A DNA stretch of 60,321 nt, the filler included, from Sphacelaria rigidula (Eukaryota): NCBI GenBank assembly GCA_964200075.2. It is 9 parts of 9 records of this genome, joined end to end, with 100 filler letters (N's around TTAATTAATTAA, not from the genome) between each part and the next. Parts side by side here need not be neighbours in the genome. Positions count along the whole stretch, not along the records: positions 26,857 to 33,470 come from CAXNAA020019060.1; 8 more parts are not named here. One strand, written 5' to 3'. The position numbers were made by a program, and so were the translations under genes. Numbering within the stretch: position 1 is the first letter of the stretch; each line of letters starts with the position of its first letter. Below are positions 1,516 through 34,398 of this stretch, in pieces. Under the pieces are notes generated by a model that saw only the letters and a program-made list of their open reading frames with translations, was not told where the DNA came from and ran no database searches.

Positions 1516-2534
1516 TACATGTATATATATATATATATGGTTGGTCATGATTCATTGGAAGGATCCCAGGACGCAGCGGCGGTGACAGCAGGGTGCGGCG
1601 TCACGTAACATCATCGATCGAGCAAGCGATCGCTTGATTAATTATCAGTAGTTGGTTCATTGATTGACTAATAATAAAATGATTAATTAATTGATTGATG
1701 AGTTGGTAGAATGATTAATTAATATTAAGTAATTTGATTGATCGATTGATTGATCGATTGATTGAAAATGGAAAGTCTCGCCGGAAAAAAAAAAAAAATC
1801 GAAGGTAAAAGAAAAAAAGAAAAAATAGCAAGAAAAAGGAAATAAGAACAATAACAACAGCTCCTTCCAATATATTGAAGAAAAAAAACGGATCACCCCC
1901 AGAACGCCCAGGGCGGCTCATCTGTAGTGTACAATCGGTGTCATGCTCCACCGGAGGATACAAACGAATGCCTTACGCAGAGAATCGAGAGAAGCGTTCG
2001 ATACATCTACAGGAGCTCCAAGGACTGCTCAAGTTAGAACCTTCAAGACGCAAACAAGCAAGACTGTGAGGCATTTGGAGGTTGACTCTTCGATGCGGAT
2101 GCATTAACTATGCATGATAGACTCGAAAAGCACGAAAAAAAAGCCAAGATCGTCTGCGCTCATGGGACACGAATTCTTCATTCGATAACGATGTTTTGAT
2201 AATCACAGGTGTCTTGTTGGTGGGAATGGGGCTTGAGTGTCTTTGTTCATTTTCCAACCAATACCGTGTATGATAAACCTGTCTTTTTCGTTTGTTTCGG
2301 TCTGGAAGGGATACAGTGCAGTACAACAGGCTGTGGATGGACAGAAACTGGCGCGGATAAGACATAACCCCTCCCAACCCAAAAAACACACAGCAACGAT
2401 GGTTGTAAATGGAAGAAAAACAAATATAGCAACATATGTGATGACTATGACGTAACACCACTTCACAATGGTCGAGTCGCAGTTGTCTACCGTATAATCT
2501 ACGAGTGGGAGACAAACGCCTAGTGGAATATCGA

Positions 2535-2860
2535 CAAAACTAACTTACAACTAGTACGCACGACCTTACAACTGGCACACACAACCATACAACTGGGACA
2601 CACAACCATACAACTGGGACACACAACCATATAACTGGGACACAAAACCTTACAAATGGGAAACACAACCTCAAAATTGGGGAACACAGCCTTACAACTG
2701 GCACACACAACCATACAACTGGGACACACAACCATACAACTGGGACACACAACCATATAACTGGGACACACAACCTTACAAATGGGAAACACAACCTCAA
2801 AATTGGGAAACACAGCCTTACAACTGAAACACACAACCTGACAACTGAAACACCCAAACA
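2535..2860. repeat. 21-bp minisatellite array (CACAACCATACAACTGGGACA-like)
   Basis: Clear 21-bp period, with a higher-order duplication of about 126 bp. It produces the Cys/Val-repetitive ORFs in the track. Confidence 0.9.
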
Positions 2861-3169
2861 CAAACAACAAAGTTTTCGTCAGATTGAGAGTAGAATGCTG
2901 ATAGAGAGTGGCTTTAATCATTCGCTTCAATTTAGCCAATTTTTCATTCCGTGTGTGCTTTTCTTTGTCTTCATCATTAGTGTGTGCTTACAGCTACACG
3001 TCGATATCCTACTCAGGGATATTAAGGGCCTCAGTGGCGAGCTACTAAATAAAGCATATTGGGCCTCACGGAGGTGCATTTCGGAACTGAAACGATTCAG
3101 TCACTAATTGACTGCTTTTCACTCTCAATCGTATCCTCTACTCTCAATCTCACGAAAACATTGTTAAAC

Positions 3170-3965
3170 CTGGTACACTCAACCTTACAACTGACACACT
3201 CGACTTCAAAACTTGCACGCTCAACCTTATACTGGAATACCCAACCGTACGAATGGAACACCCCACCTCGAACATGGTACATCCAACCTTCTAACTAGCA
3301 CACACGACCTTTCAACTAGCACACACACCCTTCCAAGGGTCGGACGAATTGATGATTTGTCTGGAAATTACTTGATTCTAGTGTCATTGGTTCGTACCGT
3401 ATGAATCAATCCTCAGGCTTTGTTTTCAGCATTGCAACCCAGGTACGCGCAGCCCAGGCACGTGGGATGGCATGGCGCAAAAATTGCGTGGAGATTTTTT
3501 TTCAACAGCGGTCAACGTTTTTTTCCTTTTCGAAGAATCAGGCCTGAAAAATCGTGGATTTGGTGATTCGAATCGGCAACTGATTTGTCCGAACCGTGCA
3601 ACCTTCTAACTACTATTAATAGCACACCCAACCTTACAACTTGTACATCCAACCTTGTAACTGGAACATCCAACCTCAAATTGGTACACACAACCTTAAA
3701 ATTAGCACACACAACCTTAAAACTAGCACACACAGCCTTATAACTAGCACACACACAACCTTACAACTTATACATCCAACCTTGTAACTGGAACATCCAA
3801 CCTTAAAACTAGCACACACAACCTTAAAACTAGCACACACAGCCTTATAACTAGCACACAAAGCCTTATAACTAGCACACACAGCCTCATATCTAGCACA
3901 CACACAACCTTACAACTTGTACATCCAACCTTGTAACTGGCACACTAGACCTCACAGCTGGCACA
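3170..3965. repeat. Further arrays of the same ~21-bp minisatellite family
   Basis: Degenerate units at 3170-3330 and clearer units (CACAACCTTAAAACTAGCACA) at 3620-3965, in the same orientation as 2535-2860. Confidence 0.8.
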
Positions 3966-6614: not shown

Positions 6615-6714
6615 NNNNNNNNNNNNNNNNNNNNNNNNNNNNNNNNNNNNNNNNNNNNTTAATTAATTAANNNNNNNNNNNNNNNNNNNNNNNNNNNNNN
6701 NNNNNNNNNNNNNN
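6615..6714. other. Artificial contig-joining spacer (first of 8)
   Basis: 44 N + TTAATTAATTAA (stops in all six frames) + 44 N. Identical copies at 13329-13428, 20043-20142, 26757-26856, 33471-33570, 40184-40283, 46897-46996 and 53610-53709. The segments are 6614, 6614, 6614, 6614, 6614, 6613, 6613, 6613 and 6612 bp, i.e. sorted by size. Confidence 0.98.
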
Positions 6715-13328: not shown

Positions 13329-13428
13329 NNNNNNNNNNNNNNNNNNNNNNNNNNNNNNNNNNNNNNNNNNNNTTAATTAATTAANNNNNNNNNNNNNNNN
13401 NNNNNNNNNNNNNNNNNNNNNNNNNNNN

Positions 13429-26756: not shown

Positions 26757-28051
26757 NNNNNNNNNNNNNNNNNNNNNNNNNNNNNNNNNNNNNNNNNNNN
26801 TTAATTAATTAANNNNNNNNNNNNNNNNNNNNNNNNNNNNNNNNNNNNNNNNNNNNATACAAGGGTACGCTATCGACGGTGGCGTGGTGATGGCACCGGG
26901 TGCAGGAGAACGAGCGCTACTCTTGCCACTATCACAAGCGATGCACAGATGTGGGGGTAAATATCCGCACACGCGGAAGCCTCTAGGGGTTTGGTCAAAG
27001 GTTCAATTCTACACCTACCTGCCGAACATTCCACACATGTGATGTATCAACCATCTCCAGTATCAAGAGTCATCCATGAGTGTAATGTATTCTGAGGCCG
27101 TCGGACAGGGGTGACGTGTTCGCATGTCGTGAAAACCGGCGAGGGTTGGAGGTGCTCGATTACGCTCGTAGCCCAAACGGTTACTCCAATTACTCATCGT
27201 CAAGGCCATCGATTGGCATCCATTTTTTTGAATCAATCGGCCGCCAAGACGGCAGCTAAAAACTCGGTCAACATTTTTTTTTTATCTCATCGGGATTCGA
27301 GTTTTATAACAAATGAAGTGAAAAAACACATGAGTTTTTTGCTATTTTCTCGATCACCACAACTCCTTTGGTTCTACAATCTTTCCAGATTGTAGCTTGG
27401 ACACATACACGCTCGTGAGTAGCCTAGGTACGTCGTGGTTTGTAGCCCGGGACTACGAAAATGGGAAATCGTCAAGTGGAAACCCCACTCAAATGATAAG
27501 TACTTGGGGGCATTTTACGGCGTGCATAATCAGGGGATGAACGAGATCTTCGGTCTGTTCGTGCTTTTGGTCGGTGACACTTTTTTGGCTCATTTGGGGG
27601 GGTCAGGCGCACCCATAGCAGTGGCAAGCGAAAGATCCTAAGAAAATCGCCAGTTACGAAGAAACAACAAAATGAACAGTTCATGCGCCCAGTACGGTAC
27701 GGTCTACAATACTCCCTCGACAAACGGGTTTTTACCTCGTATTGTTCTGACATTACAAACTTGGGGAAATCTGTCCTGAGCAAGACCTACTTTTTTTCCC
27801 AACACCTACCGCGTCAAACTTGTGTGTGAAACTGAAGAGTTGTCTGCGAGAAATCCTGACCGAGTGAAAATACGAAATTTGAACTTGTACAGTAGAAACC
27901 CCACCACGCGACCGACAGTGACACCTTGAGAGCGAGGCAATTGCGGATATACTCTACATCACGCAAGACGCTGTGCACACCCGCTTATCAGGCGTGAACA
28001 CGGGCTCTCCAAGATAAGAATCAACTGCCTGTACATCAAGTTTCAACTCAC

Positions 28052-28303
28052 CCTTTCCGCTTGCCTAATACTAGCGTTTTCCCGCTGCAGAGAGTACAAC
28101 ACCTCCAGCGTCCGCACATGCTTTGCAAGAAGGGCCGATGCGCCCTTCCCTGCCTGCGGCGCACCAGCCGTACTGCTGGTGGCAACTGCTAAGTTGGAGA
28201 CCGAGCTGTTATTGGAAATATCACAGACATCCATTCCATCACCACTGGCACATTTTTGTGTTCTTCCTGACCCTGGCGCCGCCCCTTTGTTATCATGCTG
28301 CAT
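28052..28303 (-). CDS. Probable first exon of a divergent gene (coiled-coil-like, product unknown)
   Basis: MQHDNKGAAPG...LLAKHVRTLEVLYSLQRENASIRQAER followed by a consensus donor AGG|GTGAGT. The start codon is uncertain. Confidence 0.5.
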
Positions 28304-28618
28304 GGGTCTGGGTTCATGTGCAGCACCGGCTAGGGATATCGTGGATTGCGGAGGGATTACAGTTATTGCGCCGCACAAAACGTTGCTGCGGCGAAATTTA
28401 CACCGTTTGGAGACATATAATGCCAAGTACGTATCTGAGCATCTAAGCTGCAGTGGGGGGGGGGGGGGTGCTGTGCTACTGCTGCCGGGTAGATATGTGA
28501 TCTAGACTACATACATAGGCAACAGCGTCAGTCAACAGGGAGGTGATTGTATTTTGTAAGTTGCTGCTCCTGTCTAAGAGGCATATCGTCGTTTTGGCAC
28601 CTTGGTCGCAGGATCAAG

Positions 28619-31600
28619 ATGAGGGATGTCGAGGACAGGGGTGGTAGTGGTGGCTATTCCCATTCGCATGATCGGCAGCAGCAGCAGCAGCAGCAGCAGC
28701 AGAAAGGGTCCATGCAACTTTTCGTAGCAACTCCCGAGGGGAAGGTAAGAAAGAGCACTAGAAATCTCACCACCGCGCGGTAGTCTGCTGCCGTTTGGAG
28801 TCACCACACCCACGTCGGCAGCAACTCATTTGCCTTTATAGACCAAGTGCCGGTCTGCTCGCACTACTGTGTAGGCCATACGCATTACGTGAGTGGATAT
28901 ATCTATATTTATCTGGATAAACCACGTGCTGGCCTGCTTGCACCGGGCCATATTATTTCCATGAATGGGAATTTCTACGATCGCCCCCCCCCCCAAAGTG
29001 ACTGATTCGGGAAGGCAAAATCTACACGCAAATCGAAAAAAGAAAAGCCGAGTGCAACGAGAAGCTGGGAATTCCCACGCTTGGGTTCGTTTTCGTCGAT
29101 GTCGCTCATACGAGGCACTTCATGCAGCTTGAAACCAAATATCAAGCGCTGTGTGGCCATTCTCTTCGTGACAGTTATGGGCATTTTTTATTTCGTGTGT
29201 GGGGGGGGTATCGTAAAAATACTCTAACAGGACAGGCATGTTTATCCGAAAGCAGAGGAGAAGCTACAGGCCCAACACGGAAACAGCAACTGACTGAGTG
29301 CATTGAGGGAGTAAAAAGAGTCACGATGACGTGTCCACGATACCGCCCTTTTCCCTGTATGTGCGTTCTCGGCGAAATAGATCGACCGTATTATTGCCGC
29401 TAAGAGCGCCTAACCCGTTCATTCTATTTTCCCTATATTATTCCTCTTGTGACGGGTGCTGCGGCAGTCCCTCGTTGTGAGAGATGTCGACTTATCCGCG
29501 GACGTCTCCCAACTACGTCGGACATGGGAAGCTTCTTCATTAATCCCCGCCACAGCGTTCACTACGGGGAGTAGGAAACGCCCTTCATTAGGAAGAGAGG
29601 GGAGTCGTCACCAGACAGGGAGTCCGGGGGGGAGGCGGAGGGCAGAGGCAGGAAATAGCGGCACACCATCAGAGCAAGATTTCCGTCTCGTGTTTGCCGG
29701 GAAAGATTTACTCCCTGGTAAGCCTTTGAGAGAGTATGGATTGGGTCGGGACAGCACCATCCATTTGCTTGAGAGGCTCAAAGGCGGGGCTCAGCTGGGC
29801 AAGGTTGTCAAGGGAAGAAGCCAGGTAGGTGGAAGGGCGTCTTTTCAGCAGTACCTGCTTTGTACATAACTACAGGGAATTCGCGCTTGGGTTTTTCATG
29901 TATTTACGGGGACGCACAAGTCGCGTCGCATCCCCGAACTCTGCTCTGTCTTCTATTCCGCGTTCCGCGTCACTGAATTGTTAAATGTGAAAAACAGAAT
30001 GCGATTGACTTTTTCTACGGTCGGATTCACTTCTTAACGCGTCACTTTTCTACTGCGTTCAGGGGAGACGCTACCGATAAGCGTCACCTTCCAAAGTGTG
30101 AATGAAAGTACATGCAGCGAGGTGCTATTTTCTAGCAACCTATTTTCATTTTTCGAGTCTTGATCGCCCGTTTGAATGTCGGTTGAAGTCATTCAGACCG
30201 TGTTTTGCCGACTGCTACGTTCTCTGGGTGGTCTCAACTCGGAGGGAAGTGTGGCGGAGGAAGTCTTTCTTTCGGCCCCGACCATCGTGGAATCCCCCAG
30301 TTTGTTGCAGTACCGCCGTGCTATCTGCTAGAGAGTAACACTCGTTGTGTCTGATCACCGTTGAATCGACCAGAACACGAACTGTCCTCAACATCCCTAC
30401 GGAAATGGGTCCTAGCATCCTATGCGAACGAAATGATCAGAACTACAGAACGAGAGAGTGATTCTACGGTAGGGATTCACATTTTTTTCTGAGGCTCTGC
30501 ACGGTCGGAGCCTCTGGATGACAAACATCTGGGCATTTTAGTGTGTAGCCTCCGAAACATTTTGGGCTAAGAAGTGCAGCCCTACCGTAGCATTCCTCGA
30601 GGGAGCTTTTACGTGAAGGTGGTAGTATGCACGTTCAAGAGGCTTCGCCTTAGCCAAGGTTCTGACGGTGGGCGCGTTCTTCGCCGCTCTCAGGTTAAGA
30701 AGAAGGGAGCCGAAAAGCCGAAGGAGTATGCAGAGCTGCAGGCCAAGTACGCCAAGATGCAGGAAATGGATATGGCGAGGTGACAGTGGAGTGTACCTTG
30801 CACATTCAGCCTGTGCACGATTGCCAAAAATTGAGATTTTCAGCGGTATTACAGCAAAGCGCACTCCCTCCTCGACGTCCGGCGACACCGAAAACAAAAC
30901 TGCAACTGCATTTGACGTGGGCATATGCTAGGTCGAGAACGGTTACTCGACCCCGTTTTTTTATCAGTTGGGGCGAGCGCTGAATTCCTTACCTTCAGAA
31001 AAATACGTATGGTATATGTAGCTCCAGTTGGTTACCGTGGTATTGTCGTGCAAAACTGCGCGGTAATCTGCAAGCATTGTACATCCTGCAGCCATCCGGA
31101 CCCCGCGGTGCGGACCGTTGCTTGCCATAGCTTTTCGCTCTCACTTTTTGTTTCCCCGCGTGAGTGACTGACTCAACTCAGCTCCCCCTCGGCTGTATAG
31201 GAAAATGACTGACATTGTCCGGGGAGGTGAGTCAACCAGGGTTCGCGTAGCTTGTCGGCAATAAGTGTCGGCGAAATTAGATACCTTATTAGGCTGTTGG
31301 GAGGGGGAGGATAAGCAAAAAATTCCGTCGTTTGTACACCTGTTCTATCTCGCTAAGACACGAAATCCACGGACATCGCAATCTCGTTGGTATCGCGCAT
31401 TGCAGTACTTGACACCACACACACGTACACGCACGCGCGACCCCTCCCCACACACAAGCATCCAACTCAAAAGTAACATAAATACATACATGTCTATGTA
31501 TATTTACCACGTCACGCATACCCGCCCTCCTGCACGCGATAGAGACGACCACTCTCCCCCAATCGATATGGTTCGATGTGTCAGGCAACAAGCCACGGCG

Positions 31601-32756
31601 GCCAAGGCTGAGCTCAAACGTCGAATCGAACAGGAAGAGAAGAACAGCAAAATGAATCGTCTTAAGATCCAGAACCAGTGGCGGAAGATCATGCGCCTGG
31701 CCAAGGTAAGCTGCTTACTGCAAAATTGCATGGGTCGCCCTCGCTGCTTGCATCGGGAGACAAAAACAGGAGGAAAAGGGTTAGTCATGCGTTCATCGCT
31801 GGCCAACATTTCAGAACGATTAAAAGAGGAGCAGAGGTAGCCGCTTGGGATACAGGGGAGAAGCAGATTTTGCCACTGAGAATAGGGTCAGTGGCAGCGT
31901 ACAGACAAATATTTGCACGATACCCAGCAATTCTGATTCCATGATTTCATCAGAGATGGCAACAGACGGGAGTTGTTCTATTTTCCTGAACGCTTTCTCT
32001 GCTTTCTCACAGGAGGATTGGTATGTCTCATTGTGTCCATCACTAGTACTCTACTGGGATATTCCAGTACGGCACCTGACGTTTTGGCGTAGGCTGCATC
32101 TCCAACTACTGTACCGCACAACGTTGCGGCCATTTTCGGATCGAGGGCGTGTAGATACCCTGAAGATATTCAAGGAGATGGAGAGACTGAGCAGGAGAAC
32201 GAAGCGCTCAACTTGCTTGCCTGTACGCAAAATGGCGACAAACCGGTGCAAATGATGGGAAATAAATATTTCACAGGATATCGTTGGCAATTCCCATATG
32301 GTGGGCCCGGAGGAGGGGCGCACCAAACCACGTTGCACTTCCATTTTGGGCTTCTTGAGTCGAACGCGGGCAAATCTTTCCACATGACTGTCGCTATGAA
32401 TTAGTCGTTGTCTCGGACAATGCATAAACGAATCTGCTGCTTGTTATCCCTTGCTCTTTGCCCCATTTCTTCTCCCCCTTGTTTTCGCCTTGTTTTCCAT
32501 CTTGTCTTTTTCCAATCTTGTTTACTTGTTTTGTGTCTTCTTCTCGTACTCGTTCTCGTCCTTGTTGTTCTTCATCTTGTCTTTTCCTCAATCTCGTCCC
32601 TTCGTATGCTGTCGCTCTTTTCGTCGCGCGTGCATTTTATTGTCTTGGAAGGTGGAAAGCCTGCGCAAAGATATCGAGGTGTTGTCCCAGAACCACGAGC
32701 GAGATGTGGACCGGAAGGATGCTATTATCCAGATGTTGGACCGTGATCTTGAAGAG
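28619..32756 (+). CDS. DRC2: Dynein regulatory complex subunit 2 (CCDC65/NYD-SP28 family) with an N-terminal ubiquitin-like domain; 5 exons, 3'-incomplete
   Basis: Exons 28619-28744, 29468-29824, 30694-30779, 31585-31705, 32652-32756; all GT-AG with phases 0, 0, 2, 0 consistent. Exons 4-5 ([59 protein letters not shown]) match the conserved DRC2/CCDC65 N-terminal region. DRC2 identity is high confidence; the join to exons 1-2 is somewhat less certain. Confidence 0.85.
28712..29788 (+). other. Ubiquitin-like domain split over exons 1-2, ending in Gly-Gly
   Basis: [18 protein letters not shown]...[36 protein letters not shown] aligns with ubiquitin MQIFVKTLTGK...[36 protein letters not shown]. 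The GG codons are at 29783-29788. Confidence 0.9.
28967..29224. mobile_element. Diverged copy of the 4239-4491 MITE, in intron 1 of UBL-DRC2
   Basis: Internal homology (CCCACGCTTGGGTTCGTT...CTTCATGCAGC.TGAA) and degenerate TIRs (TTTCTACGAT.GCCCC / GGGGTATCGTAAAAA). Confidence 0.75.
30456..30598. mobile_element. 143-bp Sola2-like MITE in intron 2 of UBL-DRC2
   Basis: Termini GAGTGATTCTACGGTAGGG / CCCTACCGTAGCATTCCTC; flanks GAGA/GAGG. Confidence 0.65.
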
Positions 32757-34129
32757 GTGAAGGGTAGCGCTGCTTCGCGCAGATGAACGGGAAAAGAGCC
32801 AGCGCGAGCAGTATTGCCTATGTGTATCGAAATTAATTTTCAAAGCAAAAGGGCAACCACAAAAACGCGCAGACGAGTCTGTTTGAGTCGCACGGTGCGT
32901 TAGTGTGTAACCCGAGCTCATTTTCTGCAGAGAACCAGCTGTTACATGTCGAATAATAATTCAGTTATTCATTGCGGGTGTTTTCGCGTTAGCCACGAAC
33001 AGTACAAAGTTAGGTGCTGCAATGACTCAAGAGTTGTGCTCGACATGGCTGGAGACAGTGAAGACGCTCGTGGTCAGTTACTGGTTGCGGTACACAGACA
33101 GTGGGTGAACGCATATATTCCCGGTGAAGTTTCATCATATTCTCGTACCGTTTGCTCCCGGCAATCGTGGATGCCTCGCTGCTGAAATTTTCTGCTGCTG
33201 TTGCAGTACTTTTCCAAACTGTTCGTGAGGCAAGTGCGACGGTGCCACTGTGGTGCACATATTTTTGTTTTCGATTGTAACACATCAAGCGACCCCCGAG
33301 AAATCTAGCCACGGTCATTGTCTACAACATTAACGTGCCTGAGGTAAACAATGCAAAAACACGCACTAAAGAACCCCCCCCCCCCCCCCCCCCCCCCCCC
33401 ACCCACATCAGACACAGCAACCGAAAGCACGACCAACAAAGAACGACAACCCACCACACACGCGCAACTCNNNNNNNNNNNNNNNNNNNNNNNNNNNNNN
33501 NNNNNNNNNNNNNNTTAATTAATTAANNNNNNNNNNNNNNNNNNNNNNNNNNNNNNNNNNNNNNNNNNNNATTCCATCTCCTCCGTACTTTATAAACTTA
33601 TTCGCTATTCCGTCTGCCCCTGCTGCCTTTCTGTTCTTGACTTAAAGTGGGCGGGCATCTCGACATTAGTCTTGTGCGCAAAAAGTGCACCCCAACCGTA
33701 GCATTGCTCCTACGCAGGTAGCATGTGCATGCATATCCATCGCACGCTGCAGTGTGTCTTCTAGGTACGACGGTTCGTCCACTATTTATCGGAGTTCAGT
33801 TTTAGCATAACATGAACGTCATTAATAACGTGAGGAACATCGTACGTGGTAGGTATGTGCCAAGTGTGGCGGGCTCACCTCCCAAGATTTACATGGAAAG
33901 TTAATTCACCGGGGCGCTTCGTGACTGTGCGCCTTCGCGGTAGTACCGTAAAAATTCGCAAAAAAAACACTAAAATACAGTACAATCCCGCGGTATCACG
34001 AGGTCGTATATTTTCACTCACCGTGGAGACCCGCCCCGGGAACCTCTGGTATCACGCATTTCATACATGGCACATTACTGGTATACCACATCGTACCGTG
34101 CCGTATATCGCGACAACTGCAAGGCAAGA

Positions 34130-34398
34130 GAGAGATGCTACGATAGGGTCTGCACTTTTGGGGCCAAAACCGGCCTGAGAGCCACGAGAGTAATGTTCCA
34201 TCGNNNNNNNNNNGTTCCATCGAGAACATTGTGACCTCCGCCCGAACCTCAGACTGGAATTATCTCATGGGTCATGGAATGCATCTTCCACCCTGAGGCT
34301 CTATAAGAACTGTGGTGGGAGTCAAAGGTAATTCGACATGCCTAGATCCTGATTTCCTCTCAGGCCGCAAAAGCGCAGACGCTATCGCAGCATCACTC
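34130..34398. mobile_element. Second full copy of the 11299-11545 MITE
   Basis: Highly similar along its whole length; perfect 4-bp TSD AAGA; contains a 10-N scaffold gap. Confidence 0.9.

Follow-up and report, generated by a model that had tools for sequence, protein, structure and literature searches.

A fast-evolving ubiquitin-fold domain stands in for the initiator methionine of the axonemal protein DRC2 in brown algae and other stramenopiles

A locus of the brown alga Sphacelaria rigidula raises the question of whether a ubiquitin-like (UBL) domain is made as one protein with DRC2 (CCDC65/FAP250), a scaffold subunit of the nexin-dynein regulatory complex of flagella (N-DRC), and, if so, what becomes of that domain. 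The locus lies on the + strand at positions 28619 to 32756 of a window of 60,321 nucleotides, which consists of nine parts of assembly GCA_964200075.2 joined end to end with filler of 100 letters; the part concerned (26857 to 33470) comes from record CAXNAA020019060.1. A sequence-only reading of this window had proposed five exons in one frame and a precursor from which a deubiquitinase (DUB) would remove the UBL. The five exons were read and translated, and all had GT donors and AG acceptors. Joined, they form 795 nt, or 265 codons, in a single frame with no stops, as had been proposed. The order within this frame is a ubiquitin-fold domain ending LERLKGG followed directly by the N terminus and core of DRC2. 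The comparisons described below indicated that a fast-evolving ubiquitin-fold domain stands in for the initiator Met of DRC2.

Exon 1 (28619 to 28744, + strand, as are all features given here) begins with the first ATG to follow a stop that lies in frame just upstream, the stop-to-stop open reading frame (ORF) starting at 28547. It contains 42 codons and ends in phase 0 before a GT donor at 28745. Its product is a variable N-terminal extension of 31 residues followed, from 28712, by the first strand of the UBL, 11 residues that match strand 1 of ubiquitin. The sequence and its translation have nine CAG codons (28676 to 28702) encoding poly-Gln within the extension, a run that was not present in the aligned Ectocarpus and Undaria orthologs. 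Intron 1 (28745 to 29467; GT..AG, 723 nt) is followed by exon 2 (29468 to 29824; 119 codons), which encodes the remainder of the UBL and, uninterrupted, the first 12 codons of DRC2. A Ser/Gly/Arg-rich stretch of ∼48 codons, placed by alignment at approximately 29534 to 29677 and transcribed without a splice, makes the loop joining helix 1 to strand 3 ∼40 to 45 residues longer than in ubiquitin and was found in the brown-algal proteins only. The UBL is closed by the Gly codons GGC GGG (29783 to 29788), so that the putative cleavage site falls between 29788 and 29789, and the conserved 12-residue motif with which DRC2 begins, the homolog of residues 2 to 13 in the unfused protein, occupies 29789 to 29824. 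Intron 2 (29825 to 30693; GT..AG, 869 nt) lies between this exon and exon 3 (30694 to 30779; 86 nt), which encodes the basic N-terminal arm of DRC2, with the core being encoded by exon 4 (31585 to 31705; 121 nt) and exon 5 (32652 to 32756; 105 nt, 35 residues). No Met was present in the joined frame from the Gly-Gly (GG) to the AKMQEMDM of late exon 3, and no stop follows the GG in the spliced frame; unspliced read-through of exon 2 meets a stop at 29867 to 29869. Each of these points agreed with the sequence-only reading.

Transcript evidence came from contigs of four runs of one study (X1 to X4), whose records bear no RNA label and whose identity as RNA is a guess; the contigs were placed on 26900 to 33470. 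These runs contained 9 to 14% of sampled words, roughly comparable to the share of the stretch that is exonic (0.19). Of the DNA-type runs from the same organism, three contained 88 to 99% of the words and a fourth 37%, indicating that the introns are genomic. The joint 29824/30694, which the sequence-only reading had named first among its checks, was present in contigs of all four runs with no other letters and with a shorter side of at least 87 nt, the sequence from 29825 to 30693 being skipped. Joints 30779/31585 and 31705/32652 were likewise found in contigs of 4/4 runs, and joint 28744/29468 in a contig of one of the four (X1; side of 32 nt), all with no other letters. Positions 28666 to 28710 were skipped as a repeat when reads were placed. 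A 2,050-nt contig of X1 runs from the tail of exon 1 through exons 2, 3, 4 and 5 and then onward, and X1 contig record 5 spans 29466 to 29821 without a gap. The UBL exon and DRC2 are, therefore, one expressed gene with one processed mRNA.

The region between the UBL exon and exon 3 was also inspected for other transcripts. A DRC2 first exon inside intron 2 was rejected: the X1 to X4 contigs contain no such exon, and the covered part of the intron is a multi-copy piece of ∼40 nt (∼30488 to 30532) with both ends loose. Retention of intron 2 was also rejected, the depth in 29760 to 29979 being accounted for by the exon 2 share, although rare forms may escape contigs. Depth in these contigs was zero from 29980 to 30419, and directly upstream of 30694 there was none beyond the exon 3 share. 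A second short multi-copy piece lies within intron 1 (∼29044 to 29093). Bin depths reached 1,600 to 3,300 at this piece and 49 to 154 at the one in intron 2 (bin 30420 to 30639), with unlike sequence on both sides; these abundant pieces of ∼40 to 50 nt probably represent parts of an expressed element present in many copies.

The five exons were as predicted, but the gene does not end at 32756, since transcripts continue: the X1 contig extends ∼1.3 kb past exon 5. Beyond 32757, the contigs are unlike the letters of the window. No DRC2 exon past residue 241 was detected in the window (tblastn with Undaria P0006 as the query, E up to 1), and a 17-mer from the transcript continuation had no match in the window with up to 2 mismatches allowed.

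Domain searches were in accord with the two-part protein. Exon 2 alone matched Pfam ubiquitin (PF00240) with 26.6 bits (gathering cut-off, 25.4; E 5e-6; profile positions 35 to 71). Exons 4 and 5 matched NYD-SP28 (PF14772; cut-off, 22.1) at consecutive positions, 13 to 51 with 22.3 bits and 53 to 86 with 29.4 bits, respectively. The combination of the ubiquitin match in exon 2 with consecutive PF14772 matches in exons 4 and 5 places the fusion beyond chance. Counted on the alignment, the window protein had 5 differences in 116 residues from Undaria P0006, and full-length orthologs carry the C-terminal NYD-SP28_assoc domain (PF14775) alongside PF14772. Residues 81 to 602 of ortholog P0012 matched PDB 7ju4_2, “Dynein regulatory complex subunit 2,” with an E value of 1.1e-120, the value for DRC1 being 2e-20. 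The AlphaFold2 model of ortholog P0011 has a predicted beta-grasp fold in residues 1 to 72 (predicted local distance difference test score [pLDDT], ∼88 to 92), with strands at 2 to 7, 13 to 18, 42 to 46 and 67 to 72 and a helix at 24 to 34; this prediction is for P0011 only, and the window UBL carries the loop insert of ∼45 residues. Residues 76 to 95 of the model, including the GG, score below 50 and are predicted to be disordered, and a helix begins at 96. A search of the ESM Atlas with residues 1 to 200 of P0018 gave no usable match.

The position of the junction was examined by comparison with unfused DRC2, which in many sequences starts M-x-x-[LVA]-G-K-x-V-K-G (MVKAGKKVKG in Volvox, MARVGKAVKG in Cyanophora, MAKLGKNVKG in Bicosoecida sp.). 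In the structure 8tek_B, residue 2 onward (ALLGKTLKGRS) aligns to the Ala right after the GG, and 7ju4_2 aligns from residue 4. As the residues behind the Met of unfused DRC2 align directly after the GG, the UBL-GG occupies exactly the position of the initiator Met, and the earlier proposal that the Lys/Gly-rich segment following the GG is the native N terminus of DRC2 was upheld. The same replacement was seen with a second type of N terminus, LRLRGG|GPKKK in P0045 corresponding to M|GPKKK in P0030. The 12 residues after the GG were identical in 11/11 brown-algal and PX-clade proteins (P0005 to P0014 and P0117), compared with an identity of ∼50% for the UBL. The second residue of DRC2 varies, with M-A, M-V, M-P and M-K all occurring.

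Tail states were counted among sequence rows that passed a regular-expression filter, which dropped some divergent DRC2 rows and retained near-duplicates. The 49 rows with a full UBL ended in GG (42 rows), GS (6 rows) or GA (1 row). In an alignment of 17 fused proteins, the invariant columns near the junction were G, G, A, L, G, K, K, G and S, and none of the columns in the UBL before the GG was invariant; mean pairwise identity (136 pairs) was 0.29 for the UBL versus 0.65 for DRC2. Conservation within the domain was assessed for 43 nonredundant UBLs (of 48), a set that includes one stump-like row (P0223); P0099, P0117, P0014, P0008 and P0010 were left out as truncated or as having non-UBL sequence upstream. 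In ubiquitin numbering, a residue class was kept in at least 75% of these UBLs at positions 1 to 5, 15, 17, 23, 26, 30, 43, 47, 48, 50, 56, 61, 67 and 69. The tail was also conserved, with R/K72 in 91%, a hydrophobic residue at 73 in 100%, G75 in 100% (43/43) and G76 in 84%. Most of these conserved positions belong to the hydrophobic core of ubiquitin, Q2, G47 and K48 being exceptions; Q2 and K48 are presumably the only two of the conserved positions that are surface exposed in ubiquitin. Positions of the Ile44 patch fell below the 75% threshold among the 43 UBLs. This pattern of fold plus tail fits that expected of a leader which folds and presents a ubiquitin-type tail. Conservation of the GG alone was dropped as proof of a DUB site, as GG-AQLGK also begins proteins that have no UBL.

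Distribution of the fusion was then assessed with exon 2 as the query against longer proteins. All seven matches were to proteins having a UBL plus DRC2, namely those of four species of Ectocarpus and of Undaria, together with a EukProt model and a JGI protein that bears the name “Sperm tail/Ubiquitin family.” The wider survey comprised two word-index searches and an exhaustive phmmer search (3,437 matches with E up to 1e-3, of which the best 150 were used). Further full-UBL fusions were detected in Chrysoparadoxa australica (PX clade in the NCBI taxonomy), Tribonema minus, Chrysophaeum taylorii, Pelagophyceae sp. CCMP2097, Aureococcus anophagefferens, Florenciella parvula (Dictyochophyceae) and Incisomonas marina (Bigyra). 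The Tribonema minus protein bears the UniRef name “Dynein regulatory complex subunit 2,” and several fused proteins are complete ORFs in MMETSP/EukProt transcriptomes. The sequence-only reading had suggested a search for an upstream UBL in brown algae, other ochrophytes and oomycetes; a full UBL was present in the first two and in Bigyra, but the oomycetes had only a stump in its place. DRC2 of Phytophthora ramorum, P. capsici, Lagenidium giganteum and Pythium brassicae has only 12 to 53 residues before AQLGK, with no Pfam ubiquitin domain, and these residues end FH[LV]SLRLRGG|AQLGK or M[LH]LELTLRLRGG|AQLGK, a relic of the last strand and tail of ubiquitin. DRC2 of Bicosoecida sp. has a plain start, MAKLGKNVKGK.

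A tree was generated by a quick method (LG+G4) from the DRC2 part only of 83 rows and rooted on Cyanophora and Volvox; near-duplicates and rows of fewer than 480 or more than 720 amino acids were left out. Full-UBL and stump rows fell in a single clade of 63 rows (Shimodaira-Hasegawa-like approximate likelihood ratio test [SH-aLRT], 99) that also held some plain-start rows. The oomycete stumps were sister to the full-UBL protein P0205 (SH-aLRT, 99), and the GS rows formed one clade (SH-aLRT, 99). A group of seven with starts of the type MG[RKF]GG-AQLGK was sister to the 63-row clade, the monophyly of this group having an SH-aLRT value of 100, and the deep forks were weak. The group (P0036, P0061, P0069, P0072, P0053, P0070, P0075 and relatives), which starts MG[RKF]GG-AQLGK or MGKGxG[RK]GG-AQLGK, could be a relic of a lost UBL or could represent the state before fusion. 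Lineages that lack the UBL but lie within groups of fused ones begin anew with M|VRLGK, M|AVLGK or MKFGK. As the fusion occurs in Ochrophyta and Bigyra and the stump in oomycetes, the fusion probably dates to early stramenopiles. One early gain followed by several losses is an economical reading and not a demonstrated one, due to the weakly settled deep forks and the quick method.

The explanation that we favor overall is that the brown-algal UBL is a removable leader on DRC2, to which we give a probability of about 0.5; that the UBL is in fact cleaved off DRC2 in brown algae is, on the sequence comparisons, an even chance. A cytosolic DUB of the USP/UCH type would cut after the Gly-Gly, during or soon after translation. 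This cut would free the UBL and a DRC2 beginning Ala-Gln-Leu-Gly-Lys, the mature end that Met excision leaves on unfused DRC2. The leader would most likely help the very basic N-terminal arm to be synthesized or to stay soluble, or would mask this arm until assembly, so that it may act as a folding aid or as a proteolytic gate on assembly of the N-DRC. Such a role would resemble that of ubiquitin on the basic ribosomal proteins eS31 and eL40 and that of FUBI on eS30. In Tetrahymena, the N-terminal arm of DRC2 is located at the top of the nexin linker, where it touches DRC8 and faces the neighboring doublet. Processing of Ub/UBL-GG fusions by DUBs is established for FUBI-eS30 and SDE2 (PMC8354635 and PMC13572447).

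An annotation artefact would make all of this moot: a small UBL gene could end by read-through at 29869 and be followed by a separate DRC2 gene with its first exon in 29825 to 30693. The stop at 29867 to 29869 does exist, and two public models are split in this way, namely P0117, a UBL-only protein, and the Laminaria model P0020. This reading was, however, largely refuted by the splicing of 29824 to 30694 in 4/4 runs and the zero depth from 29980 to 30419. In addition, such a DRC2 would have no start Met before late exon 3, the 12 invariant post-GG residues share an exon with the far more variable UBL, and complete transcript ORFs of other species carry the fusion; we regard the artefact as hardly credible. 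With regard to the gene models themselves, P0117 (161 amino acids) ends just past GRSQVRR and P0020 of Laminaria digitata (495 amino acids) begins at the internal MQEMDM, so that kelp models divide or shorten the gene.

Permanent retention of the UBL deserves more weight and is, in our judgment, quite possible. The UBL would then remain on the N terminus of DRC2, placed at the nexin linker's top beside DRC8 and the neighboring B-tubule, and RLRGG-AQLGK-x-VKG-R/K-S-K would be a conserved basic flexible arm and not a protease site. Several observations weigh against a removable leader, and those on tails and tags also favor retention. The sequence-only reading had taken loss of the GG among orthologs as refuting cleavage, and such loss was seen in part: no brown-algal row has lost it, but 7/49 full-UBL rows with intact UBLs lack the second Gly, six ending RLLGS (including Incisomonas marina) and one, the single Florenciella parvula cluster, ending RLPGA. 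In P0206, the UBL is well preserved (PF00240, 73 bits) despite a non-GG tail. LRLRGG was kept exactly in 13/13 oomycete-type rows (P0212, P0214, P0216, P0218 to P0221, P0223, P0226, P0227, P0230, P0231 and P0236), whose stumps cannot fold as ubiquitin. Such stumps should escape a DUB that depends on the fold, and the tail may therefore work inside the mature protein; the oomycete relic is explained by neither the cleaved nor the retained model. The MGRGG-type clade keeps a GG before AQLGK without any UBL. Chlamydomonas DRC2 carrying an N-terminal BCCP tag, with this terminus on the linker side, supported wild-type motility (PMC4294676), so that a free DRC2 N terminus is not obligatory in that alga. 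Finally, contigs may hide rare isoforms, and the RNA label of X1 to X4 is a guess. Axonemal proteins such as IQUB contain uncleaved UBL domains. Retention is countered by the conservation pattern, since a docked domain should keep a larger interface than two surface sites (Q2 and K48) in addition to fold core and tail. The UBL also accommodates the brown-algal loop insert and was lost or reduced on several occasions, and there is no linker at all between the GG and the residue that follows the Met of unfused DRC2. To our knowledge, integral UBL domains generally do not have an R-L-x-G-G tail.

Processing that depends on lineage or is regulated would combine elements of removal and retention. 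The UBL would be cut where the tail is R-hydrophobic-x-G-G, as in brown algae, xanthophytes and pelagophytes, and left uncut where it is GS/GA or a stump, or it would be cut at one particular step, such as cytoplasmic preassembly or flagellar entry; once freed, the UBL with its GG end might serve as a modifier or join the N-DRC as an associated subunit. In favor of such processing, tail states are mixed among clades, a “ubiquitin-like protein” was detected by tandem mass spectrometry in the purified Chlamydomonas N-DRC (Oda et al. 2015, PMC4294676), and cleavage of the SDE2 UBL as a switch provides a precedent (PMC13572447). The proposal is otherwise purely inferential, no UBL surface except Q2 and K48 is conserved, and we rate it as very unlikely.

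The removable-leader explanation draws on similarities to known fusions. Like the Ub-eS31 (RPS27A) and Ub-eL40 (UBA52) precursors, the algal protein has an N-terminal ubiquitin fold ending RLRGG, with no linker or Met, in front of a very basic partner that enters a large assembly; PDB chains of the eS31/eL40 precursors matched the UBL part of P0012 with E values of 1e-6 to 1e-8. In those precursors, the ubiquitin is canonical and invariant and its cleavage is proven, whereas here a divergent UBL (mean identity, 29%) is joined to an axonemal coiled-coil protein and the cleavage is putative. FUBI-eS30 (FAU), which is processed by USP36, also has a divergent UBL-GG leader, and removal of FUBI is required for maturation of the assembly (PMC8354635 and PMC10611586); the partner and the lineage differ (FUBI is holozoan), and some UBL-DRC2 orthologs have no GG. 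In SDE2, an N-terminal UBL-GG similarly abuts its partner, and cleavage by USP5 frees the active partner and serves as a switch (PMC13572447). SDE2 is, however, a nuclear splicing/replication factor whose new N-terminal residue matters for turnover, unlike the variable N termini of DRC2. Unusual N-terminal ubiquitin fusions of protists, such as algal Ub-NiSOD, are often missed by automated annotation (Sibbald et al. 2019, PMC6332867), as the division of the kelp models P0117 and P0020 illustrates; the main text of that paper does not mention DRC2, and none of the terms flagell-, dynein, CCDC65 and NYD-SP28 occurs in it. The sequence that starts with AQLGK is that of an ordinary DRC2/CCDC65/FAP250 (PDB 7ju4_2, 8glv, 8tek_B and 8j07_2), the difference being that solved and model-organism DRC2 proteins begin with the Met whose place the UBL takes here.

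A second N-DRC scaffold subunit was found in a comparable arrangement. In P0261/P0278 (ENA, JGI; 553 amino acids; one cluster of two members), DRC4/GAS8 (PF13851, 228 bits) carries canonical ubiquitin (PF00240, 112 bits) as a direct N-terminal fusion. The junction in P0261 is LRLRGG|GKKKKKGKKGKK, with a Lys-rich DRC4 N terminus (GKKKKKGKK) right after LRLRGG, as for DRC2; the ubiquitin is canonical and the subunit a different one. It is conceivable, although unlikely in our estimation, that ubiquitin-type leaders are a recurrent ancient device for the nexin link, with UBL-DRC2 in stramenopiles and Ub-DRC4 in at least one other lineage. Removal by a DUB would then license the arm to engage DRC8 and the neighboring doublet, the freed UBL, produced 1:1 with DRC2, might stay as a subunit not assigned before, reminiscent of the “ubiquitin-like protein” of the Chlamydomonas N-DRC, and the oomycete stump would be a relic with a binding role. 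Other N-terminal ubiquitin fusions, recognized from precomputed Pfam assignments only, were P0241 to P0246, P0250, P0262, P0269, P0273 and P0276, with partners including adenylosuccinate synthetase (Closterium), a KH domain, thioredoxin-like domains and pyruvate kinase.

No account of a UBL-DRC2 fusion was found in full-text literature searches, in line with the earlier statement that none was known, and the domain-fusion passages of the Phaeoexplorer preprint do not name it. The sequence is already present in public gene models and under one UniRef name; the observation that it is a fusion appears to be undescribed. The N-terminal ubiquitin and UBL leaders known so far belong mainly to ribosomal proteins, with a few special cases besides. 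A leader on a core scaffold subunit of the N-DRC would, if true, extend to cilia the idea of ubiquitin as a built-in chaperone or assembly gate, in a fusion kept from Bigyra to brown algae and with one junction and one diagnostic peptide as a clean, testable system. Were the UBL retained instead, stramenopile flagella would have one more globular module on the tip of the nexin link that faces the microtubule, visible by cryo-electron tomography. The domain also offers a phylogenetic marker for stramenopiles, with decay states running from intact through loop-expanded, GS/GA and stump to lost, and, in practice, the gene should be expected to appear divided or shortened in public kelp annotations.

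Some features of the surrounding sequence were also recorded. A search of 26857 to 33470 against Rfam gave no matches at E up to 0.1. Downstream of the gene, a poly-C run (∼33378 to 33400) is followed by an N block (33471 to 33570) and a gap of 10 N (34204 to 34213), and contiguity there is doubtful. Paired blocks of 44 N, 12 bases apart, recur with an exact period of 6,714 bases (e.g., 6615 to 6714, 13329 to 13428, 26757 to 26856 and 33471 to 33570) and resemble masking. Upstream of the gene, from 26900 to 27780, many short, abundant contigs aligned with 95 to 99% identity and shared differences, which suggests a repeated or multi-copy transcribed sequence.

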